From assembly GCA_947627915.1 (NCBI GenBank), contig CANQXT010000001.1, positions 2,231 to 66,230 of the forward strand: 64,000 bases of DNA. The letters are read 5' to 3'. Origin of the DNA: an uncultured Bacilli bacterium (GTDB lineage: Bacteria > Bacillota_I > Bacilli_A > RF39 > UBA660). Shown here in pieces: positions 30,054 to 62,524 of the stretch. A model generated the notes under the pieces. That model ran no database searches. It was given only the letters and a program-made list of their open reading frames with translations, and was not told the origin of the DNA. A program made the translations under genes and the position numbers. Numbering within the stretch: position 1 is the stretch's first letter; each line of letters starts with the position of its first letter.

Positions 30054-31199
30054 TTAATTTTTTTCTTGTGCTAAATTATTTTCAATAGCAACTCTTTCAG
30101 TTATAAAAATCATAATTACAAAGTTTAAAGTTGATGATCCGCCATAACTCATTAACGGAAGAGGAACACCAGTTAAAGGTAATAATGCTAAAACACCAGA
30201 TAAATTAATAATTATATGGAACGCAATTAACCAAAATGTGCCATAAGCTAAAATAGAATTTCGTAAATTAGTTGCTGACTTAGCTATTTTTAAAATTCGA
30301 TAAAGCATAATAAAGTATAAAACAATAACTAACACACCAGTTAAAAGTCCTAATTCTTCAATAAGAATTGGAAAAATAAAATCGGTATGACTCTCAGGTA
30401 AATACAAGAATTTTTGCGTACTATTACCAATACCCACTCCAAATAAACGACCATTATTAATAGCAATAAAACCATTACAAACTTGATATCCGGTTTCTTC
30501 GGTATATCTTTGGCAAGGATTAGTAAACTTAAAACGACTCATTTGATCACTATTTAAAATACTAGCCCCACTTGAAAGTAAAGTTATTGCCACCGCTATT
30601 AAACCACAACCTAAAATTAGCATTATTTTGGGTAAATTACTTTTAATCATTGGCACTGAAATAAAAATACAAAAAGCGATAGCTACTAAAATTGCTGCAC
30701 TTCCAAAATCTGGTTGTAATAAAACTAAAACTCCAATAACAGCGCATATAATAAGTGGTAATAAATAAAGATAAATATTCTTTTTATTTTTCCTAACTAA
30801 AGAATTGTAAAAGACGGCCATAAAAATAATAATTGCTGACTTGGCAAATTCACTAGGTTGAAGTCCTAAACCAATGCCCGGAATATAAAACCAACTTTTA
30901 GTATGATTAGTAATACTACCATAAATAAATAATAATATTAAAGAAGTAATAATGCCAATAATATAAATCCAAGAGAAACTTTTATACCACTTAGTAGGAA
31001 TTCGCAAAATAATAAAACCAATCGTAAATGCCACAATATAAAAAATTAATTGGCGAACAAAAAAATATGTAGTACTTTTATTATAACGAAGTATGGCCGC
31101 AACTGATGATGAAGAAAAAACCATTAAAAGACCAATACAACTTAAGAGTATTACAATAAAAAATAAAGGTTTATCAATTTTGGCAAATATTTTTTTCAT
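30054..31199 (-). CDS. SEDS-family peptidoglycan glycosyltransferase (RodA/FtsW/SpoVE family)
   Basis: 381 aa with about 10 TM segments. Conserved LYLPESHTDFIF and PLPLMSYGGSS motifs. This is a second SEDS gene outside the dcw cluster and is likely rodA-like. Confidence 0.85.
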   Translation of the reverse strand: MKKIFAKIDKPLFFIVILLSCIGLLMVFSSSSVAAILRYNKSTTYFFVRQLIFYIVAFTIGFIILRIPTKWYKSFSWIYIIGIITSLILLFIYGSITNHTKSWFYIPGIGLGLQPSEFAKSAIIIFMAVFYNSLVRKNKKNIYLYLLPLIICAVIGVLVLLQPDFGSAAILVAIAFCIFISVPMIKSNLPKIMLILGCGLIAVAITLLSSGASILNSDQMSRFKFTNPCQRYTEETGYQVCNGFIAINNGRLFGVGIGNSTQKFLYLPESHTDFIFPILIEELGLLTGVLVIVLYFIMLYRILKIAKSATNLRNSILAYGTFWLIAFHIIINLSGVLALLPLTGVPLPLMSYGGSSTLNFVIMIFITERVAIENNLAQEKN

Positions 31200-39761: not shown

Positions 39762-41420
39762 CTATTTTTTCATTAATTCAATTATTTTTGCTTTATCTAT
39801 TTCAATATTACCACTATTTAAAATAAATTCATTATTTTTAACAAATCTTTTATAATTATTTTGATTATGAGCATCTAAAATAAAAGTTTTAATACTAGGA
39901 ATTAATAATTTTTCTTGATAAGTTTTATTTTGCATATCAAATACTTTTAAAGATGGCATTGATACTACCCTTAAAACAATTCCTAAAGAAATTAAACTTT
40001 TAGCAATTGTTATTGCATCATTAACATTATAACCAGAAGCAATTAGAATACCATTAACCGTATCACTTTCCTTTTTTACTGGATAACTTCCAGCTTGAAC
40101 ATATTTATAATTTGTCTCTTTAAGAGCTTTTACTTTCTTATTGGAAATAATATTAACGGTTGTTTTAGAATAACTATTCAATATTTCATATACCCCAATT
40201 ACTTCATTAATATCTCCTGGACGAAAACAAATTAAATTATCTAAACAATTTAAAAGATCGATATAATTAATTACATTGTCATCTTCTAAGAAAGTATAAT
40301 GAATATCTAAATTATTATTAGCACTTTCAATAATACTATCTAATATATGAGGCATATTATTTAATTTAGAACTTATAAATACTTTAAAATTAAGAATAGC
40401 TAAACCAATTGCAATATCATTTAACAAGTTAATTTGATTAGGTAAAATAATATTACGATGCGTTACATTAGTATTATCCATAATTAAAGATTTAGACAAA
40501 GTTTGAATATCTTCTCTATCAGATAAATTTAGAATAAAAGCATTTTTATTACTAAATATATTAAATATCTTTTGATTACTTTGAATTATTTTTTCTTCAT
40601 AATCATCATTTAATTTAATATTAGAAGCTTTAAAATTATTAATAACTTTTTTATTTTCTAAGAAATTAATAATTTCTTGTAATTTTAAATCTTTCATTGC
40701 TTTTTGTTTAACAAGATTACTCTTTTCTAAATCTTTATTTAATCTTTTTAAAAGACTATCAAACATATCATTAACATTAACATTCTCTTTAATTTTAGGA
40801 ACATTTTTAGTTCTAATATTTACAAAGATAATTGTTGGTATCTTACTAGTTTTGGTATCATCTAAAATATTTTCTAATTTAGATAAGCCATTAACTTCTT
40901 CAATATGAAATTTAAGATATGCCAAACGATCTGTTAAATTTTCTACACATTTATCATAGTTATCTTTAACAACTATATATACCATTTTATTTAATTTAAA
41001 ATTATTACAACAAAAAATATTATTAAAGACATTATTATTTAATAATTCATCATATTTACAAATACAAAAAGTTCTACTCGTAATTAAATTAGTTTTATTA
41101 TCTTCAATTTTAGCTAAACCATTTAAATATCTATTTCCAAGAGCTACTCCTAAAGAAATACCAAAAGCATTATCTATTTTATAATTAGTAATATTTTCAG
41201 TATCTTTATAAAATAACTTTAAGATACTTTGATGTATATTAGCTAATTTAGGACTAACAAATACTCTATCTTTATTGAAATAATTATAATTATTAGGATC
41301 AAATATTAAATTATTTCTATATAAGCGATATAATAAATCAATTATATCTAAATTAATATCTTTTTCGTCAATATATTCTAATTTTAAATTATTTACTATA
41401 CTTAAATCTATTTTGTTCAT
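39762..41420 (-). CDS. Degenerate transketolase-like protein (probable pseudo-enzyme)
   Basis: 552 aa. FNKDRVFVSPKLANIHQSILKLFYKD aligns to the transketolase [26 protein letters not shown] region but with the GHGS His motif replaced. GISLGVALGNRYLNG aligns to GQGIAMAVGMAIAER. The C-terminus resembles the TK C-terminal domain. Shorter than a real Tkt (about 660 aa), and TPP-binding and catalytic residues are not recognisable. Confidence 0.45.
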   Translation of the reverse strand: MNKIDLSIVNNLKLEYIDEKDINLDIIDLLYRLYRNNLIFDPNNYNYFNKDRVFVSPKLANIHQSILKLFYKDTENITNYKIDNAFGISLGVALGNRYLNGLAKIEDNKTNLITSRTFCICKYDELLNNNVFNNIFCCNNFKLNKMVYIVVKDNYDKCVENLTDRLAYLKFHIEEVNGLSKLENILDDTKTSKIPTIIFVNIRTKNVPKIKENVNVNDMFDSLLKRLNKDLEKSNLVKQKAMKDLKLQEIINFLENKKVINNFKASNIKLNDDYEEKIIQSNQKIFNIFSNKNAFILNLSDREDIQTLSKSLIMDNTNVTHRNIILPNQINLLNDIAIGLAILNFKVFISSKLNNMPHILDSIIESANNNLDIHYTFLEDDNVINYIDLLNCLDNLICFRPGDINEVIGVYEILNSYSKTTVNIISNKKVKALKETNYKYVQAGSYPVKKESDTVNGILIASGYNVNDAITIAKSLISLGIVLRVVSMPSLKVFDMQNKTYQEKLLIPSIKTFILDAHNQNNYKRFVKNNEFILNSGNIEIDKAKIIELMKK

Positions 41421-41477: not shown

Positions 41478-42608
41478 TTAAACTAATTTATTAATTAAAT
41501 TATTAATTTTAACTATTGCATCATTATTATCTAATTTTTCTAAATTTTTATTCATTTTTAATAAAATACTTGGATTATTTAATATTTTAGTAACCATTCT
41601 TTTAAATCTTCTAACACCTCGTAGAGAAACACCATATTTTTTGCGACTCATAAACTTAGCATTGTAACGTTCTTGACCACCTAAACCTGGTAATAAAATC
41701 ATTGGTACTTTCATTTCTAAACATTCTGTTACGGTTGCTCCCCCTGGTTTACTAATAACGACATCACTAATTTTCATAATATTTAAAACATCATTTGAAT
41801 AACCTAAAACACGAATATTTTTAGCATTATATTTTTTTACTAATCTATCACATTTATCTTTTAGTTTGGTATTCTTTCCACAAATGAAGATAACATCAAC
41901 ATCTAAATCCATTTTAACTAATGCTTTAAAATAATCATAATAATATAAACTACCTACAGAAGATCCCCCAAAGAATAAGAATACTTTTCTATTTCCTTTA
42001 ATATTATATCTTTTATAGATATCTTTTTTACTATCTAAATTATTAATAACTTTTATATTAAGAGGCAAACCATAAGCATAAATTTTTTTAGCATCAACAC
42101 CTCTTTCAATTAGTTCTTTTTTAACTAAATCATTACCAACAATATAACCATCTTCTAAAGATCTATTCTTCGTCCAACATTCGTGGGTACGATAATCCGT
42201 AATAATCGTTAATAATTTACTATTTATAAGTCCTAATTTATTATATAAAGTAATTATATTACTAGCATAAAAATGACTAGATATAACTATTTGAGGGTTA
42301 TAATCAATAATTACTTCCCTTAATCTTTTATTATCATAACTTTTTTTAGCAAAGTAATTATGACCTAATGTAGATATTTTATGATCCATTAATTCATAAC
42401 CGATATTAAATAAGAATTCTGAACGATGTTTACCAACAAAATCAAATACTTTGATGCCACATCTTCCTAAAAAATTACCATAATCAGTTATATCTAGTAA
42501 TTTAACTTCAAATTTATCATTATTTTCCTTTATATAATTAGCTACATACTCCGCGATTGACTTATGACCTGAGCCATATCTTGCATACAATACTAATAAT
42601 CTTTTCAT
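41478..42608 (-). CDS. GT28-family diacylglycerol glycosyltransferase (UgtP/MGDG synthase-like)
   Basis: 376 aa. N-terminus LVLYARYGSGHKSIAEYVANYI matches the UgtP/MGDG-synthase N-terminal motif, with a C-terminal GT-B domain. Confidence 0.7.
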   Translation of the reverse strand: MKRLLVLYARYGSGHKSIAEYVANYIKENNDKFEVKLLDITDYGNFLGRCGIKVFDFVGKHRSEFLFNIGYELMDHKISTLGHNYFAKKSYDNKRLREVIIDYNPQIVISSHFYASNIITLYNKLGLINSKLLTIITDYRTHECWTKNRSLEDGYIVGNDLVKKELIERGVDAKKIYAYGLPLNIKVINNLDSKKDIYKRYNIKGNRKVFLFFGGSSVGSLYYYDYFKALVKMDLDVDVIFICGKNTKLKDKCDRLVKKYNAKNIRVLGYSNDVLNIMKISDVVISKPGGATVTECLEMKVPMILLPGLGGQERYNAKFMSRKKYGVSLRGVRRFKRMVTKILNNPSILLKMNKNLEKLDNNDAIVKINNLINKLV

Positions 42609-42665: not shown

Positions 42666-42830
42666 TTATTTATTAACAACATAATTATCGACAGTATTTT
42701 TATTTAAATTAGCAAACCGCATATTAAGGAGCAATACTCCTCCAACTAAAACTGCATAAAATAAAACTAAAATTCCTAAATTAAAAATTTTCTTTTTCAT
42801 TATATATCACTCCTTCTTTCACATCTATCA
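42666..42830 (-). CDS. Candidate small single-TM protein divergent from lexA (possible SOS-induced division inhibitor); frame disrupted relative to a strong upstream SD-ATG
   Basis: Minus-strand frame open from ATG 42830 to TAA 42666, 54 aa: MIDVKEGVIYNEKENFYLGILVLFYAVLVGGVLLLNMRFANLNKNTVDNYVVNK. A perfect SD (GAAGGAGTG) and an ATG at 42799 sit in a different frame that stops after 7 codons. A +1 change in the T5 tract (plus-strand A5, 42782-42786) would give MKKKIFYLGILVLF... (44 aa). Not in the ORF track. Confidence 0.35.
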
Positions 42831-42835
42831 TAGCA

Positions 42836-42847
42836 TAAACGTTTGTT
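42836..42847. promoter_or_regulatory. Putative LexA box 1 (AAACGTTTGTTT; AAAC-N4-GTTT, a variant of the Gram-positive Cheo box)
   Basis: Dyad AAAC-N4-GTTT seen directly, 6 bp from the 42830 ATG of the divergent small ORF. Confidence 0.4.
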
Positions 42848-42871
42848 TGCATCAACAGAAAAAATATATTG

Positions 42872-42883
42872 TAAACATTTGTT
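42872..42883. promoter_or_regulatory. Putative LexA box 2 (AAACATTTGTTT) overlapping the lexA -35
   Basis: Second AAAC-N4-GTTT dyad, 36 bp from box 1, overlapping TTGACA (42882-42887). Confidence 0.45.
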
Positions 42884-42910
42884 TGACATTTTTTAGATGA
42901 TGATGTATTA
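42882..42910 (+). promoter_or_regulatory. lexA sigma-A promoter
   Basis: TTGACA (42882-42887), 17-nt spacer, TATTAT (42905-42910). RBS AGGAGG 7 nt before the lexA ATG at 42929. Confidence 0.45.
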
Positions 42911-42928
42911 TTGTTATAGGAGGTCTTT

Positions 42929-43552
42929 ATGAAAAAAAGTGAATTAACTAAACGTCAAAGTGAAATTTTAGATTTTATTAAAAAGTTTATTGCGGAACAT
43001 GGTTTTCCCCCATCAGTAAGAGAAATATGTGCTGGAGTTGGATTAAATAGTCCCGCTACTGTATTTGTCCATTTAAAAAATATTGAGAATTTAGGATATA
43101 TCAAAACAACTAGCAATAAATTTAGAACTATTGAAATTTTATGTGAAAATGAATATTTACCTACTAATGAGAATGTTGTCAAAGTTCCTCTATTAGGAAA
43201 AATTACGGCAGGTAATCCTATTACAGCAATTGAACAACCAAATGAATTTTTTGATATTCCAGCATCTCTAATTCCTGCTAAAGAAGAAGTATTTACTCTT
43301 CACGTCTCTGGTGAAAGTATGATTAATGCGGGAATTTATGATGGTGATTATGTTATTGTTAAAAAACAAAGTAATGCTAAAAATGGTGACATTGTTGTAG
43401 CAATGACTATGGAAAATGAAGCCACTATTAAAACATTTTATAAAGAACATGGACACATTCGTTTACAACCGGAAAATGATACAATGGATCCAATTATTTT
43501 AGATAATTGTGTTATTCTCGGTATAGCAATTGGCCTTTATCGAAAGTTATAA
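42929..43552 (+). CDS. lexA: LexA repressor (SOS regulator, S24 peptidase)
   Basis: 207 aa. N-terminal winged HTH (LTKRQSEILDFIKKFIAEHGFPPSVREICAGVGLNSPATVFVHLKNIENLGYI), a cleavage-site region and an S24 domain with Ser (VSGESMINAGI) and Lys (IVVAMTMENEATIK). Confidence 0.9.
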   Translation: MKKSELTKRQSEILDFIKKFIAEHGFPPSVREICAGVGLNSPATVFVHLKNIENLGYIKTTSNKFRTIEILCENEYLPTNENVVKVPLLGKITAGNPITAIEQPNEFFDIPASLIPAKEEVFTLHVSGESMINAGIYDGDYVIVKKQSNAKNGDIVVAMTMENEATIKTFYKEHGHIRLQPENDTMDPIILDNCVILGIAIGLYRKL

Positions 43553-43587
43553 AAAAGAACCCACATATTTGTGAGTTCTTTTATTTT
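43553..43587. terminator. Bidirectional rho-independent terminator between lexA and the DUF2207 gene
   Basis: aagaacccac (43555-43564) / gtgagttctt (43571-43580) with T-runs on both sides. Confidence 0.55.
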
Positions 43588-45277
43588 AACGAAAACCGCC
43601 TCCGCCGCCTCCGCCACCGAAGGAGCCACCGCCTCCACCACTAGATGAGAATCCCCCACCACCTGATGAATAACTTTCAGCTCTACTTCTGGCCGCAGAT
43701 GCAGCATTAACACCATTATAAGAAATTGTATGTAAGAATATAATATCACTATAATATTCATCACTTATAATATCAGGATACATTTCTTTAAACTCTTTAG
43801 CAACTTTTTTCGCTATACCAAATATTTGTGCATATATTAAATAATATTCCCATAGTTTAACTTCAATTGCTTCTCTATCTTTAATATTAGAAAAATCTTT
43901 TAAGAATTTTTTTAATCCTGCCATTTCATAAGCATATTCTTGAATTTTATCTTTAACAAAATATTCTTTTTTTACTTTATCAATTAATCCTTCTTCAACA
44001 AATTTATTTGTTTCATCATCAACAACTCTATCAAACCATCTAAGTATCTTTCCATAATGATCACCACACCATTTTTCAAATTCGTGTTTTTCTAAGATAC
44101 CATCTTTACTTGCTTCATACATCATTTGATAAATTTCTTGTTCCATAGGATTTAATTTAGTTGCACTTTTCAATTTCAAAGCTTTTTCTTCTTTATTTTT
44201 CTTTGTTACCATTGTATTTTCGATAACATCTTCTTTTAACCATTTAAGAAGAAGAGCTCCTAAAAAGTCATTTTTATTTTTAATTAATTCATATTGACCT
44301 GCAACCCAATAAGCTTTAAAGACATCTTTTTCACAAGGAATATCTCTAAAATATGGAACATCTTTTAATTTTTTACCATTTTTAGGAAATTTAATTCTTT
44401 TTGTACCAAATGTAATTATCATCTTTGATATACCAAAAATACTTGCTCCTATAACACTAAAAGTAAAAATAATATTACCAATAATTAATGCTATAGTATT
44501 AAATGAAGGTTCATATTCATCATAGTCGTAATATGAATCATAGTTATTTTCTATAGATCCTTCATTAGCCATATCTAAATAATAAGAAAAATCCTCATTA
44601 ATAAAAGTACTGGTTTTAAATGTTTCTTTAGGAAACTTAGCTAAAAGAACCATATATTCATTACTATTTAACGCTCCATCTTTACTCATTTCAATATAGC
44701 CATCATAAACATAAGCATAACCATTTTGATTACCACCATAACCATATCCCCATACATCATAGTCATCTTCGTATGCAAAATCACTATAAACTTTTATATA
44801 GACATTTTCTGGTTTATCAGATAAATCATAAGGAATTAGTTGCCAATATATCATTTGGGCATCATTTAATTCTACCACAAAATTAGTGATATCATATTCC
44901 ATTATATAAGTATTTTTTCCATAATTACTTATTCCGAAACATAACTCTACTTTATCACTGCCATAGTTTAAACCAGCTTTATAACTTTTATTAGCAAATG
45001 ATGCATCTATATCCCAATTACTTAAAGTAGTGAATTCTTTACCATTCATTGAAACTTTATAATTTTCTATTCTACTGCTTCCTAAATTATAATATGGTTT
45101 ATATCCTTCTGTTCCTTTATCTAGTTTTGCTACCCACTCTTCTTTTATATGTGCAGTACCCATATTATCTACATAAATATCCATTCTTATACTTTTAATA
45201 TCATTATAAGCAAACACTATTTTATTAAAAGATAAAAATAATATTATTACAAATAATAATTTATATATTCTTTTCAT
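43586..45277 (-). CDS. DUF2207-family membrane protein (extracellular N-domain, TM, cytoplasmic domain, Gly-rich C-terminal tail)
   Basis: 563 aa. Signal peptide MKRIYKLLFVIILFLSFNKIVFA, TM helix IALIIGNIIFTFSVIGASIFGI and a terminal SSGGGGFSSSGGGGGSFGGGGGGGGFR tail. Sits directly downstream of lemA, as is usual. Confidence 0.75.
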   Translation of the reverse strand: MKRIYKLLFVIILFLSFNKIVFAYNDIKSIRMDIYVDNMGTAHIKEEWVAKLDKGTEGYKPYYNLGSSRIENYKVSMNGKEFTTLSNWDIDASFANKSYKAGLNYGSDKVELCFGISNYGKNTYIMEYDITNFVVELNDAQMIYWQLIPYDLSDKPENVYIKVYSDFAYEDDYDVWGYGYGGNQNGYAYVYDGYIEMSKDGALNSNEYMVLLAKFPKETFKTSTFINEDFSYYLDMANEGSIENNYDSYYDYDEYEPSFNTIALIIGNIIFTFSVIGASIFGISKMIITFGTKRIKFPKNGKKLKDVPYFRDIPCEKDVFKAYWVAGQYELIKNKNDFLGALLLKWLKEDVIENTMVTKKNKEEKALKLKSATKLNPMEQEIYQMMYEASKDGILEKHEFEKWCGDHYGKILRWFDRVVDDETNKFVEEGLIDKVKKEYFVKDKIQEYAYEMAGLKKFLKDFSNIKDREAIEVKLWEYYLIYAQIFGIAKKVAKEFKEMYPDIISDEYYSDIIFLHTISYNGVNAASAARSRAESYSSGGGGFSSSGGGGGSFGGGGGGGGFR

Positions 45278-45311
45278 AATTAACCTCTTAAAAAAGGCAT
45301 TTTATAATGCC

Positions 45312-45860
45312 TTAAAATTTAACTTTAACATTTTGTCTTTCTTCATTACTTGCCTCAAAGAAAGTTTCTTTTTTAAATCCGAATATTCCTGCTACAATAT
45401 TTGATGGGAACATTTCTATCTTATTATTAAGTTTTAATACGGAATCGTTATAAAAACTTCTTGCATAACTAATTTGTTCTTCTGTTTCTCTTAATTCACC
45501 TTGAAGTTGTAAAAAATTTTCGTTAGCTTTTAAATCTGGATAACTTTCAGATAAAGCAAATAATCTACTCATTGCTTTACTTAATTCTCCATCAGCTTCA
45601 AGTTGTCCTTCTAAGTTATTAGCATTTACATAATTATTACGAGCTTTAATTACATTTTCTAAAGTTTCACTTTCATGTTTCATATAACCTTTAACTGTTT
45701 CAATTAAATTAGGTATTAAATCAAATCTTCTTTTTAATTGAACATCAATTTGACTATATTGATCTCTAACCTTATTTCTTAATGAAACTAAACTATTATA
45801 AACTGAACCAATAAAGATTCCTAAAACTAATAAAACCACTATTAAAATAATCCACGGCAT
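45312..45860 (-). CDS. lemA: LemA-family protein
   Basis: 182 aa. N-terminal TM, then VSLRNKVRDQYSQIDVQLKRRFDLIPNLIETVKGY, typical of LemA. Confidence 0.85.
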   Translation of the reverse strand: MPWIILIVVLLVLGIFIGSVYNSLVSLRNKVRDQYSQIDVQLKRRFDLIPNLIETVKGYMKHESETLENVIKARNNYVNANNLEGQLEADGELSKAMSRLFALSESYPDLKANENFLQLQGELRETEEQISYARSFYNDSVLKLNNKIEMFPSNIVAGIFGFKKETFFEASNEERQNVKVKF

Positions 45861-46600: not shown

Positions 46601-48844
46601 TTAAGTACGCTTTTTAAATAATCCTTTAATCATTAACATTTGATAAATAATTGCCAATAATATAATTACACTAATTAATAAGAATGGATATAAATAAATG
46701 CTATAATTAAATCGAATAATATTTATTGTATAACCTAAGTTATAAGATATTATTAAATTACCTAATATAATAGATATAGTAATTAAAAGATAAGTCATTA
46801 AAAGAGCGATTAATCCTAACATTAAAGATTTAAAAATAAATATTTTTTTTATAATTAAATCTTTTATACCTAAAGAATACAATGTCAATATTTTATCTTT
46901 ATTACTCTTAAATACAAAATGGATATAAACAATAATTATTAATATGTTTACCAAAGCGAATATACAACCTAAAAAAGTAAAAATTGTTTTCACTTGACTA
47001 ACTAGTAGATTAATATTAGCCATATCATCACTATATAATGTTTTAAATTCAATATGTTCTTTATCAATGGAAAATAAATTTTTTAATTGTATTTTACTAG
47101 CATTATTAACATATATCTCTTTAACTAGTTGATGATTTAAATAAACATTATTTAATAAATTTTTATTAATAATTGTTAAATTGCCAATATCAATTACCTC
47201 TAATTCATAACTTAAATCATTCATATTATATAAATCATATAAATCCCATAGTTGCAGTTTTATTTTATCACTTTTTATAATAGATTGTTCTTTTGCTAAA
47301 TCTTTACCAATAATTATTTGCTTTAAATTTATATTTTCATCACTAATATAATTAATAGTCATATTATCGTTGTACTTTAACCCTAAAGTCATATTGGTAT
47401 AACTATTGGAATTAAAATTAGATATTTCAAAAAAATTTGAATTAATATAATATCTATATAAATATTGCATTATAATATTTTCATCATCATTATTAAGCGT
47501 ATCTTTATTTTTTATATCTTCATCTACTAAATAAATACCTACTATCTTTAATCTTACATCATTAACTAAAATTTCTTGGTTTAATAAATCAGTATAATTA
47601 TTTATTTCTATAATTTGATTATCTACATTACTTACGCCTAGACGAATAATATAATCGGCAAGAAAGTTAGAAATCATTAACTCATTTGCCCCTTTGGGAA
47701 GATTACCTATATAATTAAATTTATTTTCTTTAAGATCAACAAATATATTGTTATCTTCCGAACTATTATTATAAAATTTATAGTATTCCGTTATATTATC
47801 CGTATTCTTAAAAGTAAAAGTAAATACTTCGTTATTAACTATTAAATTACTACCATAAGAATAATTATAATTTTGTAAAAAAGATTCTAAATAATTTCTT
47901 TCAGAAACATTAAAACCCATTGTATAACTGTTTCTATCATCATTTTTTACAATTGTAATATTATTTTGATGATTATTAACAAGTGCTTCAGCATATGATT
48001 CATTTAGATCAAATTGAGTAAACATTATAGAAAAACCAAAGAAAAACATAGCCATAGTCATTGTTATAACAGCTAGTAAATATAAATTATTTTTCGTTTT
48101 AAATACTTTTTTAGATAAAAATTTTATTAGATTATTACTATATTCATAATCCTTTAAATAATAGTTAGATTGTTCATTTACATTAGAATGATTAACTTCA
48201 ATTAAACCATCAACTATATTCAAAATAGAATCTGCATAAATAGTAGCTCTATTTTTATCGTGACTCGCAACAAGAACTAGCCTTTTTTTACTTATCTCTT
48301 TTAATAATTTCCAAACTTCGTCAGAATTCTTTTGATCTAAATTACCTGTTGGTTCATCTGCAAGTATTATTTGGGGATTTTTAACAATAGCTCTAGCAAT
48401 TGCCACTCTTGCTTTTTGGCCACCTGATAATTCAACTACTTGACGATTTTTTAAATTTTCAATATCTAAATCTTTTAAAACAACATCTATTTTTTCTTCA
48501 TCATCTTGATTTTGTAAATCTAATGCTATTTTAATATTTTCATAAACAGTTAAATTATCTAATAAGTTAAATTCTTGAAAAACAAAGCCTATAACTTCGT
48601 TACGATAATTTGCTATTTCTTCCCTATTTAAGTCATTCAAACAAATATTATTAAAGAAAATATCACCTGAATTAGGGTAGTCTAGACCTCCAACAAGATT
48701 TAGTAATGTTGATTTACCACTTCCACTTTTACCAATTAAACAGAATAAACCATTATCTGGTAATGTAACATTAACATTATCTAAAGCTTTAACTGATTCA
48801 TATCTAGTTTTATATATTTTACTAATATTCTTTAATTTTATCAT
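46601..48844 (-). CDS. Fused ABC transporter ATPase + FtsX/MacB-type permease
   Basis: 747 aa. GKSGSGKSTLLN, LSGGQKARVAIARA, ILADEPTGNLD, a large extracytoplasmic domain and a C-terminal TM bundle. Close paralog of its neighbour. Confidence 0.8.
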   Translation of the reverse strand: MIKLKNISKIYKTRYESVKALDNVNVTLPDNGLFCLIGKSGSGKSTLLNLVGGLDYPNSGDIFFNNICLNDLNREEIANYRNEVIGFVFQEFNLLDNLTVYENIKIALDLQNQDDEEKIDVVLKDLDIENLKNRQVVELSGGQKARVAIARAIVKNPQIILADEPTGNLDQKNSDEVWKLLKEISKKRLVLVASHDKNRATIYADSILNIVDGLIEVNHSNVNEQSNYYLKDYEYSNNLIKFLSKKVFKTKNNLYLLAVITMTMAMFFFGFSIMFTQFDLNESYAEALVNNHQNNITIVKNDDRNSYTMGFNVSERNYLESFLQNYNYSYGSNLIVNNEVFTFTFKNTDNITEYYKFYNNSSEDNNIFVDLKENKFNYIGNLPKGANELMISNFLADYIIRLGVSNVDNQIIEINNYTDLLNQEILVNDVRLKIVGIYLVDEDIKNKDTLNNDDENIIMQYLYRYYINSNFFEISNFNSNSYTNMTLGLKYNDNMTINYISDENINLKQIIIGKDLAKEQSIIKSDKIKLQLWDLYDLYNMNDLSYELEVIDIGNLTIINKNLLNNVYLNHQLVKEIYVNNASKIQLKNLFSIDKEHIEFKTLYSDDMANINLLVSQVKTIFTFLGCIFALVNILIIIVYIHFVFKSNKDKILTLYSLGIKDLIIKKIFIFKSLMLGLIALLMTYLLITISIILGNLIISYNLGYTINIIRFNYSIYLYPFLLISVIILLAIIYQMLMIKGLFKKRT

Positions 48845-48845
48845 T

Positions 48846-51359
48846 TTAATCTTTTTCCTTTTTTATTATTTCTATTGGATTTAATTTTAATAGTTTTTTT
48901 ATTGTTGCTGTTATAGAAATATACAGAATTATAACATAAGATAATATTGTAAGAGGATAAAGATACCAATTTTGATAAATCAAATTAATTTTAAAACCTA
49001 CTTTGTTAGATATATAGTGATTAATTAAATTAGAACTTGGCATTAAACAAATTATAACTATTAAGAAAGGAATTATTGTTAACATGCATATTAATAAACT
49101 ATATATTTTTATAATATCTTTATCTTTAAATCCTAAAGATTTCATAATTCCAAAATCTTTTTTATTAGCAAATAATATAAGTAAATTAATTAATACCATT
49201 AAAACTATTAAGAATCCAAATAAAATTATCGAACTATATTTAGCAAATATTGAAGTTTTATTAATCATATTAATCATTGAACTTATTTTATTAGATAATG
49301 CTGTAGATATAATATATTTATCATTATCTATATGATTATTTAATAGGTCAATTAATTTATCTTCATTTTTTTCAGTTATGGTAATCGTATTAACATTATT
49401 TATACCAATAAAGTAATTTTCTAAAACATTATCCGATACTAAAAAAGGATTAGAATGAAATTGGCCATTATCTATTGAAGAAACATAATTAACTACTTTT
49501 AAACTATATTTTTCCATTTCTTTAGCTTTTGAATAATCATAAGGATCAGCAATAAATAAATCAATATTATTACCTAAAATATTATTTTGTTCCATATACA
49601 ATAAAGCAAAATCCCTTTCTGATAATTCTTTTTGACTTTCTAACTTATTTTCAAAATCGTTATTAGATAATAGATTTAATAAATACTTATTAAGAACAAT
49701 TTCATTATCATTTAAAAGATATGAATTATTTAAATAATAAGGTACTGTCCAAGCACTACTATTATAATCAATAAACTTATATTCATTATCTATAAAAAGG
49801 TAACTTTTAAATAATTCCGTATTTAATGAATTGTTTTGTAGGATATCTAAAGTAGTAAAGAAATTTTCATTACAATAAATAACAAAAGTTTTATTATAAA
49901 AATATCTTAATTCTTCATCAAATACAACTGCATTATTACCAAATTCATCAAGTTCATAACTAATAGTTTTGTTTTTAAAAGCATCAATGTCATAATCTAA
50001 ATCATATATACCAGTTATTTTAAAAGCTGTATTAATTGATGGATCAAATTGAAGAAAAACATCATCATTAATAATCTCATCATAACTCTTAGGATAATAT
50101 TCATTTCCTTCTTTATCTATTAAACCATAATTTATTATAAATCTAGCAAATAAATTAGAGATTAATATTTCATTATTATTTTTAGGAAAACTACCTATGT
50201 ATTTTTTAGAAAAATTCTCTTCTTTAACTTCTATAAATGATTTAATAGGAGTCATTAATTTATTGCATATTATGTTATAGCTTTCTGATGGTTCTTTTAT
50301 AATTTTATTAGCAAATTGAATTACCATATTTTGATAATTGCCAGCAATAGTATTTTCAATTTCATACTTTATATCTTTTGTATCTAAATAATTCGTTATA
50401 TCATCTATTTCAGTTTGTTTAAATTGCCAACTATGATAATCACCTACTGAATTTCTAACTAAACTAATATCATAATCATTTTTAAAATTAAGTTTTAATG
50501 CTTCAATATGTGAATTATTAATATCAAACCTAGTTAAATTAATCACAAAAGCATATAAAAAGAAGAAGATTAAAAAAATTAGACTAATTAATGAATTACG
50601 AATAATATTAGATTTAAAAATATATTTACTTACTTTAAATAAATTATTAAATTTTATTTTGGTTTGTTTTACCGGGTATTTCACTATTTCTTTAGTATCT
50701 ATTATATCTTTACTAATTTGACCATTCTCAATAAAAATAATATCATCGGCATATTTTTTAGCATTATCTTCATCGTGGGTAACAACTATTATTAAATAAT
50801 CTTTACTTAATGTTTTAAAAATATTCCAAATTATTTCCGAATTAGTACTATCAAGATTACCTGTTGGTTCATCTGCTAAAATTATTCGAGGATTTTTGAC
50901 AATAGCTCTGGCAATTGCTACTCTTGCTTTTTGGCCACCAGATAATTCTTTAATTTTTCTAAATTTTAGTGTATCTATATCTAATTGTTTCATTAAAATA
51001 TCAATTTTAGTTGTATCTTTTTTATTTTGTAATTCTAATGCTAATTTTATATTATCATAAACAGTTAATTTTTCTAACAAATAATATTCTTGAAATATAA
51101 ATCCTACTACATTGTTACGATAATCAGCTAGTTCATTGGAACTCATTATGCTTAAATCTTTATTATTAAAAATTATTTTCCCTTTAGTAGGATAGTCTAA
51201 TCCTCCAATAAGATTAAGTAGTGTTGATTTACCACTTCCACTTTTACCTAATAAAACATATAGACCAGTCTTGGGAAATGACAAATTTATATTATCAGCT
51301 GCAGTAATATTTTCTGATTTATTAGTATATATTTTACTTACATTTTTTAGTCTAATCAT
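48846..51359 (-). CDS. Fused ABC transporter ATPase + FtsX/MacB-type permease
   Basis: 837 aa. The NBD is highly similar to 46601..48844, a tandem duplicate. C-terminal FtsX-like helices (GIMKSLGFKDKDIIKIY). Confidence 0.8.
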   Translation of the reverse strand: MIRLKNVSKIYTNKSENITAADNINLSFPKTGLYVLLGKSGSGKSTLLNLIGGLDYPTKGKIIFNNKDLSIMSSNELADYRNNVVGFIFQEYYLLEKLTVYDNIKLALELQNKKDTTKIDILMKQLDIDTLKFRKIKELSGGQKARVAIARAIVKNPRIILADEPTGNLDSTNSEIIWNIFKTLSKDYLIIVVTHDEDNAKKYADDIIFIENGQISKDIIDTKEIVKYPVKQTKIKFNNLFKVSKYIFKSNIIRNSLISLIFLIFFFLYAFVINLTRFDINNSHIEALKLNFKNDYDISLVRNSVGDYHSWQFKQTEIDDITNYLDTKDIKYEIENTIAGNYQNMVIQFANKIIKEPSESYNIICNKLMTPIKSFIEVKEENFSKKYIGSFPKNNNEILISNLFARFIINYGLIDKEGNEYYPKSYDEIINDDVFLQFDPSINTAFKITGIYDLDYDIDAFKNKTISYELDEFGNNAVVFDEELRYFYNKTFVIYCNENFFTTLDILQNNSLNTELFKSYLFIDNEYKFIDYNSSAWTVPYYLNNSYLLNDNEIVLNKYLLNLLSNNDFENKLESQKELSERDFALLYMEQNNILGNNIDLFIADPYDYSKAKEMEKYSLKVVNYVSSIDNGQFHSNPFLVSDNVLENYFIGINNVNTITITEKNEDKLIDLLNNHIDNDKYIISTALSNKISSMINMINKTSIFAKYSSIILFGFLIVLMVLINLLILFANKKDFGIMKSLGFKDKDIIKIYSLLICMLTIIPFLIVIICLMPSSNLINHYISNKVGFKINLIYQNWYLYPLTILSYVIILYISITATIKKLLKLNPIEIIKKEKD

Positions 51360-53943: not shown

Positions 53944-54082
53944 AACTTGCTTTCCTCTTATTTCATAAATCATATTCTTAATTTTTTCTTCTTTAATTAA
54001 TGTAATTGTGTCCATATAAATTCCCCCTTACTGTGACCATAAGCAAACTATAGCAAATATATGTTTGTATGTCAATATTATT

Positions 54083-55168
54083 TTAATTATTTTTAGAAAT
54101 ATTCAAAATAATACCAATGCTAAGCATACTTACAAGTAAAGAAGAGCCGCCATAACTAAGGAAAGGTAAAGTAACTCCAGTCACAGGCACGAGACCAACA
54201 ACCACCGCTAGATTTAAAACCGCTTGAATAATTATTCCAAAAATTAATCCAAAACATAAATATTTTCCAAATAAATCATTTGTTTTTAAGGTAATTCTAA
54301 TACCTCTATAAAATAAGAAAAAGAAAGCACTTGTTACAATTAAAACTCCTAAAAAGCCTAATTCTTCACTAATAATTGAAAAGATAAAATCAGTTTGGGG
54401 TTCTGGTAAATAAAAATATTTTTGTCTGGATTTAAAAAAACCTTGACCAAGTATTCCGCCCGGTCCAATTGCATACAAGCTTTGAAGAATTTGGTAACCA
54501 CTTCCAAGGGGATCGCTCCAAGGATTTAAAAAACTAATTATACGCATCATTCGATAAGGTGCTGCAATAACAATCCCAATAATACCTACTAGACCAAGAA
54601 GACCTATTTTAACAAAGAAAGATACTTTTACTCCACTTATAAAAATCATTGCAATAAGAGTACAAACGATAACCATAGAGGTACCAAAATCAGGTTCTAA
54701 CATAATGATAAAAAAGAAAAAACCGATAACAAGTAAAATAGGTAAAACACCTTTAACAATACTTTTCATCTTTTTCTTATTATTTGTTAAATATTTAGCT
54801 ACAAAGATAATTAAACCAATTTTAGCAAGTTCACTAGGTTGAATTCCTAAAGAACCTATTCCAAACCAACTACGACTACCATTTCTAACACTACCTATAC
54901 CAGGTATTAAAACTAATACTAATAATATTGCACATATAAATAAAATAATATTAGCATATTTATAATATAAATGATAATCTATTTTTGAGGTAAAATAAAT
55001 GACGAATAATCCCATAAGAAAAAATATACTTTGCATTTTAACAAAATGAAAAGCATCATTAAATTTATATACTGCCCAAACATAACTAGCTGAGTATATC
55101 ATTATCAAACCAAAAACAATTAGAATGATAGTCATTATTAAAAAAGATCCATCAATTCTTTTTTTCAT
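54083..55168 (-). CDS. ftsW: SEDS-family cell-division protein FtsW/SpoVE (dcw cluster)
   Basis: 361 aa, 10 TM. FYLPEPQTDFIF and PFLSYGGSSLL motifs. Immediately downstream of mraY. Confidence 0.85.
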   Translation of the reverse strand: MKKRIDGSFLIMTIILIVFGLIMIYSASYVWAVYKFNDAFHFVKMQSIFFLMGLFVIYFTSKIDYHLYYKYANIILFICAILLVLVLIPGIGSVRNGSRSWFGIGSLGIQPSELAKIGLIIFVAKYLTNNKKKMKSIVKGVLPILLVIGFFFFIIMLEPDFGTSMVIVCTLIAMIFISGVKVSFFVKIGLLGLVGIIGIVIAAPYRMMRIISFLNPWSDPLGSGYQILQSLYAIGPGGILGQGFFKSRQKYFYLPEPQTDFIFSIISEELGFLGVLIVTSAFFFLFYRGIRITLKTNDLFGKYLCFGLIFGIIIQAVLNLAVVVGLVPVTGVTLPFLSYGGSSLLVSMLSIGIILNISKNN

Positions 55169-55195
55169 AAAACCCCCTATTTATTATTTAATTAA

Positions 55196-56188
55196 TTAAA
55201 TCCAAACACCATATGTTATAGCAACCATTGCTAAAAGTAATCCAACTACATAAAACAATTTAACAATATCACTTTCACACCAATGCAACTCTTCAAAATG
55301 ATGATGAAGAGGAGCTTTTAAAAATAATCTTTTATTAAAATTACGAATTAAAAACATTTGAATTAAACTACTTAATGTTTCAATTACAAAGACACCGCCA
55401 ATAATTGCTAAAGATAATTCGTGTCTTGTTAATATAGCAATAGTTGCTAAAGCACCTCCTAATGCTAAAGAACCAAAATCACCCATAAATACTTTAGCAG
55501 GATGACTATTATAAACTAAGAAACCAAGTAATGATCCAACTATTAAGAAACAAAAAATAGCAATTTCTTGATAACCTTCTAACCAACCACAATTCCACGA
55601 AATAATACCATAAGCTACAAAAGCAATCGCTGAAAGACCAGCACATAAACCATCTAACCCATCAGTTATATTAACTGCATTCGAAGTACCTACTAATAAA
55701 AATAAGATAAAGATACCAAATGTCCATCCTAAAGGTATTATAATATTTAATGCTGTAAATTCAAGAGTTGATTTACCTCCACTCTTCATAAAGAAATAAA
55801 AGAATACTAAAGCAATAATCATTTGAATTAAGAATTTAGTAACAATACTTAAACCTTTATTATTATTTAATTTAACCTTTAATAAATCATCTATTCCTCC
55901 TAAAAGAGCATATGCTAAAAAGACAAATATCAGAATAAATAAATTATAACTAAAATTAATACTTTTATTAATATATAACAAAATTAAAGAAAAAATGGTT
56001 GGAAAAATAAATATTATCCCTCCCATTGTTGGAGTTCCTTCTTTTTCTAAATGACGTTCATTAATTGTTCTACTAACTTTTTGACCTATATTAAACTTTT
56101 TTAATAATGGTATAAAAATAAGACCACTGGCAATTGCCAAAACAAAGCCTAACATCATAGCCATAGCAGCTTTTGCTAAAATTAACAT
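55196..56188 (-). CDS. mraY: Phospho-N-acetylmuramoyl-pentapeptide transferase
   Basis: 330 aa, 10 TM. NAVNITDGLDGLCAGLS motif and DxxD. Confidence 0.85.
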   Translation of the reverse strand: MLILAKAAMAMMLGFVLAIASGLIFIPLLKKFNIGQKVSRTINERHLEKEGTPTMGGIIFIFPTIFSLILLYINKSINFSYNLFILIFVFLAYALLGGIDDLLKVKLNNNKGLSIVTKFLIQMIIALVFFYFFMKSGGKSTLEFTALNIIIPLGWTFGIFILFLLVGTSNAVNITDGLDGLCAGLSAIAFVAYGIISWNCGWLEGYQEIAIFCFLIVGSLLGFLVYNSHPAKVFMGDFGSLALGGALATIAILTRHELSLAIIGGVFVIETLSSLIQMFLIRNFNKRLFLKAPLHHHFEELHWCESDIVKLFYVVGLLLAMVAITYGVWI

Positions 56189-56268
56189 ACTATCACCCTC
56201 TTATTTAATTATACAATACTAAATATATATTCTTGAGTTTCATTTTATTAAATTGACAAAAATTGACA

Positions 56269-58188
56269 TTAGTTTAACAACAAAGTAATCGTTGTATCAG
56301 CACTTTGAAAAGTATTAGGACTAGGAGACATATAAATAACTTTATCTCCACTACCGGTATATTTAATTTTAAATTCTTTTAATTTTTTAGTAGCTTCTTC
56401 TTTAGTCATTCCCACAACATCTGGTAAAACATAATAATGAACATCTAAATATTGATATTCTTTTAACATACCACCACTTTGTTCTTTTATTTTTAACGTT
56501 TCAATAGTAGATAACATAATATTTCTTGCAATAGGAGCAGATACTGTTCCTCCATATTGGGTTACCCCTTTAGGATTATCCACAGCCACATAGATAACTG
56601 CTTCAGGATCATTAGCAGGTAAAAAGCCAATAAATGAAAGAATATAATTACCAACCATATATTTACCATTACTTACTTTTTGAGCCGTTCCGGTTTTTCC
56701 ACCAACGCGATAATTCTCAATATAAGCATTTCTACCCGTCCCATTAGCCACGACACTCTCTAAAGCAAAACGAACCATTTGGGAAGTTTCTTTACTTATT
56801 ACTTCTCTTTTTACACGAGGTTTATTTTCATAAATAATTGCGGAACTACTTTCATCTATAATTGCATCAACTACATAAGGAGTATTTAAAAGTCCACCAT
56901 TAATCGCGGCAGAGACTGCTGTTACTTGTTGAATAGGAGTAACACTTATACCTTGACCAAAGGCAGTTGTTGCTAACTCTACAGGTCCCATTTTATCTAA
57001 CGAAAACAATATTCCATTACCTTCACCATTTAAATCAATACCTGTTTTAGAACCAAAGCCAAATTTTTTTATGTAATTCATTAATGTTTCTTTACCTAAC
57101 TTTTCGCCTAAAGTAACAAAACCGGGGTTACAAGAATTTTCTACTACTTCTAAATATGTTTGAGCTCCGTGACCACCATGTTTCCAACAATGAAGAGTTG
57201 AACCTTCTACTGTTATTGCTCCAGAATCATAATATGTATCCTTAAATAAATCAACTACCCCTTCTTCCAAACTACTTGCTAATGTAATTATTTTGAAAGT
57301 TGAACCTGGTTCATAAGTTTTCCATATTGGTAAATTACGATTTATAACTTCTTCACTATAACTTTGATAATCATTTGGATCAAATGATGGTAAACTACCC
57401 ATTGCAAGTACTTTCCCTGTTTTAGGATCCATAACAATACTTAAAGCATTATCTGCGTTATATTTATCCATTGCATTATTAAGTTCATTATAGATTGCTT
57501 CCATTAATTCTAAATCTAATGTTAGTTTCAAAGTCATTCCTTTAGATGGGGCAATATAACTATCAGGTACCTCTAATTTATTACCTTTACCATCACTATA
57601 ATATTTTAAAGAACCATTAACACCCGTCAAATATTTATCATAAGTAAGTTCTAACCCCGAAAGACCTTGATTATCACTACCAACAAAGCCAATAATATGA
57701 GCAAGCATTTCCCCATATGGGTAATATCTTTTGGAATCAACAATTAAATAAACACCATCATAACCTAATTTTTCAATTTTTTCAGCTGTTTTGCTATCTA
57801 AGTCCATTCCTTTTCGAATTATTTCCATACTACTATTTTTTGCCACATATTTATAAACATCATCAAAATCACAATTTAATATTTCTGCTATATCTTTCGA
57901 TACCTTTTCCTTGTTTTCAGCTTTTATCTGTCCAGGTACCACATATATTGTAGTTGTAACAATACTAGTAGCTAATACTTTACCATTTCGATCAACTATA
58001 TCTCCTCTTGGAGCATTAATAGTCATTCTTCTACTCCATAAATCTTCAGTTATTTTAGATAATTTATTATAAGAAAATACTTGAATATAAAACACTTTTC
58101 CTATTATTAATAAAAGTATAATTATAATAATTAATAATATAAATCTAATTCTTGTATGTATATCATTAAAAAACATATTATCCCTCAT
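56269..58188 (-). CDS. Class B penicillin-binding protein (SpoVD/PBP2x-like transpeptidase with C-terminal PASTA)
   Basis: 639 aa. N-terminal TM, dimerisation domain and transpeptidase motifs STFK (EPGSTFKI), SCN (ENSCNPGF) and KTGT (GGKTGTAQ). PASTA domain at the C-terminus. Confidence 0.85.
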   Translation of the reverse strand: MRDNMFFNDIHTRIRFILLIIIIILLLIIGKVFYIQVFSYNKLSKITEDLWSRRMTINAPRGDIVDRNGKVLATSIVTTTIYVVPGQIKAENKEKVSKDIAEILNCDFDDVYKYVAKNSSMEIIRKGMDLDSKTAEKIEKLGYDGVYLIVDSKRYYPYGEMLAHIIGFVGSDNQGLSGLELTYDKYLTGVNGSLKYYSDGKGNKLEVPDSYIAPSKGMTLKLTLDLELMEAIYNELNNAMDKYNADNALSIVMDPKTGKVLAMGSLPSFDPNDYQSYSEEVINRNLPIWKTYEPGSTFKIITLASSLEEGVVDLFKDTYYDSGAITVEGSTLHCWKHGGHGAQTYLEVVENSCNPGFVTLGEKLGKETLMNYIKKFGFGSKTGIDLNGEGNGILFSLDKMGPVELATTAFGQGISVTPIQQVTAVSAAINGGLLNTPYVVDAIIDESSSAIIYENKPRVKREVISKETSQMVRFALESVVANGTGRNAYIENYRVGGKTGTAQKVSNGKYMVGNYILSFIGFLPANDPEAVIYVAVDNPKGVTQYGGTVSAPIARNIMLSTIETLKIKEQSGGMLKEYQYLDVHYYVLPDVVGMTKEEATKKLKEFKIKYTGSGDKVIYMSPSPNTFQSADTTITLLLN

Positions 58189-58212
58189 AAAATAATATGT
58201 TTTATTTAGTTA

Positions 58213-58848
58213 TTATTGAATTAATTTTTTTAAATTAATTATTTTAAAATTAACTATTACTAATAATAAATTTAAAATAATATTTAAAATTAAGTTTAAT
58301 TTTAATAATGCTATAACTATCAAACTAGATACAATTAATAATAATATTATAATAATCTTTTTAGTAAATAAATTAGTAAAAGTAACTAACATTATATATA
58401 TAGTTATAAAATATAAAATACTTATAATTATATCTCTAATATTTATCCTTATAAAATAGCTTAAAAATTTTGCTATTATTAAACTAGTACATAATTTAAA
58501 TATAATCAAAAAAAGAATAAAAACAATTAATTTACTAGAAAGCCATTTATATTTATTTATTCTTATAGCTATATTATTAAAACCATTCTCTAAATCATAA
58601 AAATAAAATTTATAACCTAAATATAAAAAGAATAAATAATTATAAATATAATATAAATTATAAGTACCATTTAATAATTTAAAATTTGGATAATTAATTA
58701 ATCCCAAAAAATTATCATAAGTTATTGGTATATAATCTAATTTTAAAAAAAGAATAATAAGATAAATAATAAGTATTAAAAAATAAAAAAGTATCCAATA
58801 TTTATTTTTTTTAATGACTTCATTAAGTATTAATAAATTTAATTTCAT
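58213..58848 (-). CDS. Polytopic membrane protein (likely permease partner of the adjacent ABC ATPase)
   Basis: 211 aa, about 6 hydrophobic helices. Adjacent to the ATPase gene and embedded in the dcw cluster. Confidence 0.4.
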   Translation of the reverse strand: MKLNLLILNEVIKKNKYWILFYFLILIIYLIILFLKLDYIPITYDNFLGLINYPNFKLLNGTYNLYYIYNYLFFLYLGYKFYFYDLENGFNNIAIRINKYKWLSSKLIVFILFLIIFKLCTSLIIAKFLSYFIRINIRDIIISILYFITIYIMLVTFTNLFTKKIIIILLLIVSSLIVIALLKLNLILNIILNLLLVIVNFKIINLKKLIQ

Positions 58849-58866
58849 ATCTTTACTCCATTTATG

Positions 58867-60405: not shown

Positions 60406-60407
60406 AT

Positions 60408-62513: not shown

Positions 62514-62524
62514 ATGTACTCCTT

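Follow-up and report, generated by a model that had tools for sequence, protein, structure and literature searches.

The 64-kb stretch of DNA analyzed here (64,000 nucleotides of contig CANQXT010000001.1 from an uncultured Bacilli bacterium of the RF39 lineage; hereafter, the window) carries a small gene that is divergent from lexA and encodes a protein of 44 amino acids (aa) with one predicted transmembrane (TM) helix. In our judgment, it is nearly certain that this small open reading frame (ORF) is a real, intact gene under the control of a LexA-type operator. We propose, with a probability of roughly 0.6, that its product is an SOS-induced division inhibitor, a single-pass membrane protein with the N-terminus inside and the C-terminus outside (N-in/C-out), which would delay septation during DNA repair. 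This role is one that we infer from position, regulation, and architecture, and the same holds for DNA-damage induction, topology, the FtsW target, and proteolytic turnover. The coordinates of the features are collected in table 1.

An Intact Small Gene Conserved Opposite lexA

The ORF scan and translation confirmed the divergent small ORF with one TM helix that had been recognized in the initial annotation of this DNA, and placed its start codon at 42800-42798 of the minus strand. From this codon, the gene strand reads ATG AAA AAG AAA ATT TTT AAT TTA GGA and remains open until TAA. The initial annotation had instead described an ATG at 42799, out of frame with the TM ORF and followed by the short peptide MKKKIFI*, and had explained the break by a frameshift in a T5/A5 tract at 42782-42786, arising from phase variation or from a homopolymer sequencing error. 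That peptide resulted from a count that was off by one base: the ATG lies at 42800 in frame with the TM ORF, the A5 run occupies 42783-42787, and the frame runs unbroken to the stop codon. A database look-up showed that the identical 44-aa protein had been called on 16 contigs from independent samples, assemblies, and assemblers, and the A5 tract and the whole ORF were the same in all 10 contigs inspected, except for one synonymous substitution; the tract comparison is biased, because these 10 contigs had been retrieved by means of the identical protein. A 5-nucleotide (nt) run is also shorter than the tracts known to slip. With the ORF intact in the window and in every assembly examined, the hallmarks of phase variation were absent, and the most unusual part of the initial annotation falls away.

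The lexA gene itself encodes a bona fide LexA, as judged from its sequence. The product exceeded the cut-off of TIGR00498, the NCBIfam LexA equivalog (228 bits vs. 111), and its sequence contains a recognizable Ala-Gly cleavage site (ITAGNP) as well as both catalytic residues, Ser (SGESM) and Lys (ATIKTF).

We addressed the conservation of the small gene in 80 lexA loci from other species, in which LexA was 61-86% identical to that of the window. The hosts were all uncultured, very AT-rich gut Bacilli, labeled as Bacilli, Tenericutes, Mollicutes, Erysipelotrichaceae, or Candidatus Onthousia; the window has a GC content of 22%. Taken together, the labels and the GC content point tentatively to the RF39, ML615J-28, or RFN20 group. 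One locus was cut by a contig end, leaving 79 usable loci, and under relaxed criteria a 42-57 aa ORF divergent from lexA was present in 73 of them (72, plus L048 on inspection). Thus, the conservation of a small TM ORF opposite lexA in relatives, on which the initial annotation had made its proposal depend, was borne out. The distance from the ATG of the small ORF to that of lexA was typically about 130 bp, with a range of 115-165 bp in relatives and 230 bp in L052. These positional ORFs share an ATG start, a strong Shine-Dalgarno (SD) sequence, a Lys-rich N-terminus, one hydrophobic helix from about residue 8, and a polar tail, and the SD was of the GGAG type with equal spacing in nearly all of them. 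The small gene was missing in six loci (L032, L037, L038, L075, L082, and L090), and the candidate in L045 was dubious.

As a control, strict criteria were applied: an ORF had to have an ATG, an SD, a length of 40-60 aa, and a 17-residue stretch, beginning no later than residue 15, with a hydropathy of 2.0 or more. This search retrieved 64 ORFs at the lexA-divergent position in the 80 relatives vs. 5 across both strands of the remaining 480 kb, and the small ORF was its sole match in the 64-kb window. In addition, the sequences showed constraint at the protein level. Over the first 33 codons, ungapped, the window and its 10 closest relatives gave proportions of nonsynonymous and synonymous differences (pN and pS) of 0.245 and 0.571, a median ratio of nonsynonymous to synonymous rates (dN/dS) of 0.29, and 0.33, 0.16, and 0.45 differences per first, second, and third codon position. 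In strain variants of the same species, the intergenic region of 128 bp contained 8-12 substitutions (7 in L006, without the last 19 nt), and the 135-bp ORF contained at most one change, a synonymous one. In the five same-species variants, the half-sites of the LexA boxes described below were unchanged, and the sole change within a box fell in the N4 spacer of box 1. On this comparative evidence, the small ORF codes for a protein, evolves under purifying selection, and is tied to lexA.

LexA-Type Boxes in Two Back-to-Back Promoters

The promoter scan revealed two back-to-back promoters between the small gene and lexA, each with a LexA-type dyad, in agreement with the initial annotation. The two AAAC-N4-GTTT dyads reported there exist, but not at 42836-42847 and 42872-42883, since the true sites lie one base to the right. 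Box 1 falls within the 17-nt spacer of the small-gene promoter, and box 2 overlaps the lexA -35 element by 2 nt, an overlap that had also been proposed. Strain variants have TTGATA as the -35 element of the small gene, most relatives have TTGACA, and a -10-like element occurs at the same place in relatives; the lexA promoter was kept in relatives as ...GTTTGACA...17 nt...tgttaaaat. In the window as in the relatives, both boxes overlap promoter elements at positions suited to blocking RNA polymerase. Box 2 would be the autoregulatory operator of lexA; LexA bound there would occlude the lexA promoter, and LexA bound at box 1 would occlude that of the small gene.

Alignment of the intergenic regions showed one clade-wide layout, in the order SD, -10, box 1, -35, 15-25 variable nt, box 2, 17 nt, and -10, with box 2 fused to the lexA -35 across the clade (AAACATTTGTTTGACA). 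The half-sites of the relatives, at the same positions as the boxes of the window, pair GAAC or AAAC with GTTC or GTTT. Among 71 relatives, the number of mismatches to the AAC-N4-GTT core was zero in 34, one in 35, and two in 2 for box 1 (CGAAC-N4-GTTCG-like), and it was zero in 66 for box 2. The consensus sequences were ACGAACATTTGTTCGT for box 1 and TCAAACATTTGTTTGA for box 2, and the overall consensus CGAACATTTGTTCG is, in sequence terms, the Gram-positive SOS (Cheo) box, GAAC-N4-GTTC; by the same comparison, the AAAC/GTTT half-sites of the window are an A/T-drifted version of the clade operator. In particular, several relatives carry CGAACAAATGTTTG at lexA together with CGAACAAATATTCG at the small gene, and these are identical to the SOS boxes of Staphylococcus aureus lexA and recA quoted in PMC11442139. 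Outside the intergenic regions of lexA and the small gene, the strict dyad occurred 14 times in the 480 kb of loci, 11 of these within long ORFs, and two of the other three were the lexA operators of L026 and L048, loci outside the main set. Loci missing the small gene generally retain the lexA operator only.

The dyads would not stand out by their sequence within the window. AAAC-N4-GTTT was found three times, compared with 2.6 expected from composition, and the significance of the boxes thus rests on their promoter position and their conservation. A position weight matrix (PWM) built from the relatives does not discriminate in DNA of 22% GC: the two boxes of the window scored 15.0 and 12.2 bits, and shuffled sequence reached 13-18 bits. 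The second-best match to this matrix in the window, GCAAATATATGTTTGT at 54053-54068 (14.1 bits, with shuffles scoring similarly), is situated a short way downstream of ftsW, at about 245 bp upstream of an ORF of 227 aa without a significant Pfam match. A 29-aa ORF at 42800-42889 (minus strand, MSNKC...) was considered as a gene and rejected as an artifact of operator conservation; its recurrence in several relatives is due solely to its reading across the conserved operator and -35 (TGTCAAACAAATGTTT).

In the 3-kb flanks of the 80 loci of relatives, no recA or uvrA was found except for one uvrA in L054. At 2000-2160 of this locus, uvrA follows two genes downstream of the small gene and has an extended -10 (TGGTATAAT).

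A Family of Short Single-Helix Proteins

The window protein consists of a basic N-terminus (residues 1-4), a TM helix (about residues 5-25), and a polar C-terminal tail of about 19 aa that is predicted to lie outside. Across the family, the net charge amounts to +1.9 on the N-terminal side of the helix and -1.1 on the C-terminal side, and from this positive-inside bias an N-in/C-out topology is predicted. AlphaFold2 produced one continuous helix, with block means of the predicted local distance difference test (pLDDT) of 77, 93 (residues 11-20), and 83 (residues 21-30), and below 60 in the tail; the model is confident for residues 1-30 only and uninformative on function. The conserved features include an N-terminal motif M-K-[KE]-x-L-K, an aromatic residue and a glycine within the helix (in the window, A16-x3-G20 forms a small-x3-small packing motif), R-[FVI]-x-x-L-[NDE] right after the helix in several subfamilies, and a C-terminal [IV]-x-hydrophobic-N motif.

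A homologue search with the single sequence among 5.8 billion proteins returned only the query itself, and a profile of the positional orthologues was therefore needed. This profile retrieved 56 proteins among the 5.8 billion, and when HMMER was run exhaustively against 1.84 billion cluster representatives, 185 matched at E <= 0.001, representing at least 185 clusters at 50% identity. The best 150 of these 185 were about 39-57 aa or artifactually extended, the few longer ones resembling mis-called starts or chimeras. No Pfam domain was found in the 185 matches, for which "hypothetical protein" was the only name given by the sources, and our literature search for an earlier description of the family in RF39-type Bacilli found none. 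Its carriers are uncultured, very AT-rich gut Bacilli known from metagenomes of human, rabbit, goat, and chicken origin. The sequence searches also yielded two members outside the positional set, P0006 and P0043 (hundreds of contigs each); these likewise lie 130 bp from a divergent lexA, and their downstream genes are entirely different.

Variable Downstream Genes

On the same strand, the small gene is directly followed, usually after 40-90 nt, by a gene that differs by subclade. A UgtP-like diglucosyl-diacylglycerol synthase gene is found in the window and 11 relatives, a transketolase gene (tkt) in 19 loci, a 5'-3' exonuclease or PolA-like gene in 12, and a YneF-family gene in 7; other downstream genes include pilin-like ones. 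These results indicate that the conserved unit is the pair of lexA and the small gene, and they speak against a leader peptide. A tkt or yneF neighbor matches the order in Bacillus subtilis, lexA<>yneA-yneB-ynzC-tkt-sirA-yneF, and thus the small gene occupies the yneA/sosA position. The analogy with YneA and SosA drawn in the initial annotation was strengthened by this common neighborhood, with transketolase or yneF-like genes downstream in many relatives.

No convincing terminator was found after the small gene in the window or in most relatives, so that transcripts started during the SOS response may extend into the gene downstream, be it that of the UgtP-like glycosyltransferase, tkt, or that of the 5'-3' exonuclease. 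UgtP of B. subtilis also modulates FtsZ. In L003, a locus of the same species from another sample, an insertion resembling an insertion sequence element separates the small gene from the glycosyltransferase gene (750-2325); it contains a 437-aa transposase-like ORF with a weak HTH_38 match and an 89-aa ORF on the opposite strand.

Comparison with Known SOS Division Inhibitors

The genes divergent from lexA are division inhibitors in B. subtilis, B. megaterium, Listeria, Mycobacterium tuberculosis, Corynebacterium glutamicum, and S. aureus (PMC6851548). SosA of S. aureus (77 aa) is similar in several respects: both genes are divergent from lexA with a GAAC-N4-GTT-type SOS box, and neither SosA (PMC6851548) nor the window protein has a LysM domain. 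SosA has an N-terminal TM helix at residues 10-30 and an extracellular C-terminus, an arrangement likewise predicted for the window protein, and its lexA operator, CGAACAAATGTTTG, is identical to that of some relatives of the window. Conservation is found just after the TM helix and is weaker at the extreme C-terminus both in SosA (PMC6851548) and in this family. SosA evolves fast even within its genus and has no homology to the other inhibitors (PMC6851548). The two proteins differ in length (77 vs. 44 aa) and in the outside tail (about 47 vs. about 19 aa). A SurA_N motif, attributed to SosA in a review, matched 1 of 62 family members at E = 0.17, which is chance level. CtpA-dependent turnover and division arrest have been shown for SosA; for the window protein, they would follow by analogy.

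For YneA of B. subtilis, B. megaterium, and Listeria, too, the gene comes first on the side divergent from lexA and is repressed by LexA; its product combines an N-terminal TM helix with a C-terminus outside, as predicted for the window protein, and its neighborhood (tkt and yneF nearby) matches that of many relatives. YneA is cleared by two proteases, both with PDZ domains, and the window encodes a YlbL-type PDZ-Lon protease. Unlike the 44-aa window protein, YneA has about 105 aa and a peptidoglycan-binding LysM domain that is essential for inhibition (PMC13396833). SidA of Caulobacter crescentus (29 aa) is very small and essentially TM-only, is SOS-induced, and acts late on the divisome at FtsW (PMC13396833); it comes from a Gram-negative alphaproteobacterium with a different LexA box and has no sequence relationship to the family. 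The sidA gene is not known to be divergent from lexA.

The proteins described here are best regarded as a new family, so far unannotated, in a class that is already known: small membrane proteins of Gram-positive bacteria whose genes are divergent from lexA and SOS-controlled. The family falls outside YneA, being without the defining LysM domain, and outside SosA as defined. To a specialist, a gene of this kind opposite lexA would come as no surprise; the compactness of the family and its breadth in uncultured gut Bacilli are worth recording.

Proposed Function and Alternatives

We propose that LexA dimers would occupy both dyads in undamaged cells. Upon DNA damage, activated RecA would promote self-cleavage of LexA, releasing both boxes, and the strong promoter of the small gene would fire upon the loss of LexA. 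The peptide would insert with its basic N-terminus in the cytoplasm and its polar tail of 18-22 aa outside, and its TM helix would dock on the septal peptidoglycan synthase, composed of FtsW plus a penicillin-binding protein (PBP) of class B, both encoded in the window, and would delay septation. The delay would end once LexA is restored and membrane proteases remove the peptide. Docking on the septal synthase was proposed because the TM helix of YneA binds TM7 of FtsW, where AlphaFold 3 also places SosA, ChiZ, and SidA (PMC13396833), and because SosA arrests division after FtsZ and EzrA have reached midcell and is cleared by CtpA (PMC6851548). A membrane protease of the YlbL/DdcP type clears YneA in B. 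subtilis (PMC6051672), and by analogy the PDZ-Lon protein of the window is a candidate recovery protease for the small protein.

As a more tentative extension, the family of about 45-aa proteins could represent a minimal SOS checkpoint effector, in which the TM helix, R-[FVI]-x-x-L-[NDE], and [IV]-x-hydrophobic-N would suffice to dock on FtsW and its class B PBP and to stop septal synthesis, with neither the LysM domain required by YneA nor an outside domain as long as that of SosA. The C-terminal [IV]-x-hydrophobic-N motif might be a degron for a YlbL- or CtpA-type protease.

Several observations weigh against a division inhibitor. Six relatives have lost the small gene, which is thus dispensable, and with a tail much shorter than that of SosA and without the LysM domain of YneA, the protein may not inhibit in the same way. 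Neither LysM nor any other Pfam domain was found in the window protein or the 62 family members, and the Pfam and NCBIfam scans of these members gave scattered chance TM matches only, with no named family; no similarity to SosA emerged through the family libraries, a comparison made without direct alignment. The window boxes score no higher by PWM than the best shuffled sites. No recA, uvr, or dinB gene was found in the 64-kb window, and no LexA box was recognizable at the L054 uvrA promoter (one promoter in one relative), which hints at a very small LexA regulon in these reduced genomes.

Among the alternatives, a LexA-regulated membrane protein with another role survives best, although we consider it rather unlikely. 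Such a protein might, for example, serve as a modulator or substrate adaptor of a membrane protease or as a regulator of the downstream envelope genes (glycolipid glycosyltransferase), with no direct effect on division. Possible read-through in the absence of a terminator after the ORF, in the window and in most relatives, and a short tail unlike those of YneA and SosA are consistent with this possibility. However, the downstream gene differs by subclade whereas the pair of lexA and the small gene is constant, and the glycosyltransferase gene of the window has its own near-consensus promoter.

Less probable still is an SOS-induced membrane-damaging peptide resembling the type I toxins TisB and DinQ, which would cause depolarization and dormancy or persistence and would not act on the divisome. 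TisB and DinQ of Escherichia coli are small hydrophobic peptides under LexA control, and the small single hydrophobic helix encoded here is LexA-controlled as well. The NCBIfam scan gave weak matches to TisB (E = 0.059) and YonT (E = 0.1) in single members, but each concerned 1 of 62 members, which is chance level. TisB and DinQ are accompanied by an antisense RNA antitoxin, and their primary mRNA is structured and translationally inactive. Neither trait was seen at the window locus: no Rfam antitoxin RNA matched at E <= 1, the folding of the mRNA equaled that of shuffles (z = 0.01), and the 5' leader of about 20 nt exposes a conserved AAGGAG, unlike the translationally locked mRNAs of type I toxins. 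Both toxins also lack an outside tail and are not adjacent to lexA, whereas conserved motifs in this family lie in the polar outside tail, where a pore-former would not need them. Moreover, all characterized lexA-divergent genes of Gram-positive bacteria are division inhibitors (PMC6851548).

That the ORF arose by chance in AT-rich intergenic DNA, or encodes a leader peptide for the downstream gene, is very improbable. AT-rich genomes readily yield short hydrophobic ORFs, and the dyad count of the window is at chance level, but the 64 ORFs on site compared with 5 elsewhere, the purifying selection, and the retrieval, by a motif profile, of 185 clusters in this size class out of 1.84 billion proteins argue against chance, and the variation of the downstream genes against a leader. 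Finally, a gene frameshifted in the T5/A5 tract can be discounted for practical purposes, given the continuous frame, the intact protein on 16 contigs, and the same tract in the 10 inspected.

Other Features of the Window

The presence of a division and cell-wall cluster indicates that the organism is walled, and the host is possibly able to sporulate. According to a published survey, most RF39 genomes are predicted to specify peptidoglycan (PMC10868615). The two PBP genes of the cluster are separated by an ABC ATPase gene and unannotated ORFs.

Two genes downstream of the small gene, only the C-terminal domain of a transketolase-like ORF was recognizable. It scored 78 bits against the NCBIfam transketolase cut-off of 682, and neither Transketolase_N nor the pyrimidine-binding domain was detected in it, whereas relatives have a canonical Transketolase_N there; it may be a degenerate or pseudo-enzyme copy.

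On the other side of lexA, the genes of a LemA protein and a DUF2207 membrane protein (43586-45860, minus strand) are convergent with lexA, and this pair adjoins lexA in same-species contigs; the DUF2207 protein has a long Gly/Ser-rich C-terminal tail, SSGGGGFSSSGGGGGSFGGGGGGGGFR. Two tandem pairs of genes for 725-837 aa proteins, each with an N-terminal ABC ATPase, are located at 13046-17630 and 46601-51359 (minus strand), and three of these four proteins also carry a C-terminal FtsX-type permease domain, as in MacB-like fused transporters.

Table 1. Positions of the Small Gene, Its Control Elements, and Related Genes in the Window
Feature	Position	Strand	Description
Small membrane-protein gene	42666..42800	minus	Intact 44-codon ORF, span including stop codon; 44-aa product MKKKIFNLGILVLFYAVLVGGVLLLNMRFANLNKNTVDNYVVNK
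SD of small gene, AAGGAG	42810..42815	minus	9 nt 5' of ATG; from sequence
-10 of small gene, TATGAT	42827..42832	minus	TG extension; promoter scan
LexA box 1, AAAC-N4-GTTT	42837..42848		AAACGTTTGTTT; between -35 and -10 of small gene
-35 of small gene, TTGATG	42850..42855	minus	17-nt spacer to -10; promoter scan
LexA box 2, AAAC-N4-GTTT	42873..42884		AAACATTTGTTT; at lexA -35
lexA promoter	42883..42911	plus	TTGACA (42883-42888), 17 nt, TATTAT (42906-42911); 11/12 consensus match
lexA	42929..43552	plus	207 aa; LexA_DNA_bind and Peptidase_S24 (Pfam)
Promoter of glycosyltransferase gene	42654-42626	minus	TTGTCA-17-TATAAT, near-consensus; promoter scan
UgtP-like diglucosyl-diacylglycerol synthase	41478-42608	minus	Directly downstream of small gene
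Transketolase-like ORF	39762-41420	minus	552 aa; two genes downstream of small gene
PDZ_2 and Lon_C protein	21418-22428	minus	336 aa, no ATPase domain; SepM/YlbL (DdcP) type, TM-PDZ-Lon; domain scan
Second SEDS protein gene	30054-31199		
Division/cell-wall cluster	54083-63768	minus	mraW, two class B PBPs, mraY, ftsW; family scans
FtsW/SpoVE	54083-55168	minus	Passes NCBIfam SpoVE cut-off
Class B PBPs with PASTA domains	56269-58188 and 60408-62513	minus	One passes NCBIfam SpoVD cut-off

Significance

Small membrane proteins that pause division while DNA is repaired are known from a handful of cultured Gram-positive bacteria, and because they share almost no sequence, such inhibitors stay unannotated. 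Here, at least 185 clusters at 50% identity, hypothetical or unnamed, gain a likely role from position, regulation, and architecture. Since the family is very short, it could help to define the part of the inhibitor that contacts FtsW, a question opened by recent work on YneA. If the family were indeed a minimal effector, it would contain the smallest inhibitory determinant for a SEDS-class B PBP synthase in Gram-positive bacteria, and genome-reduced uncultured gut Bacilli would keep a complete SOS checkpoint.

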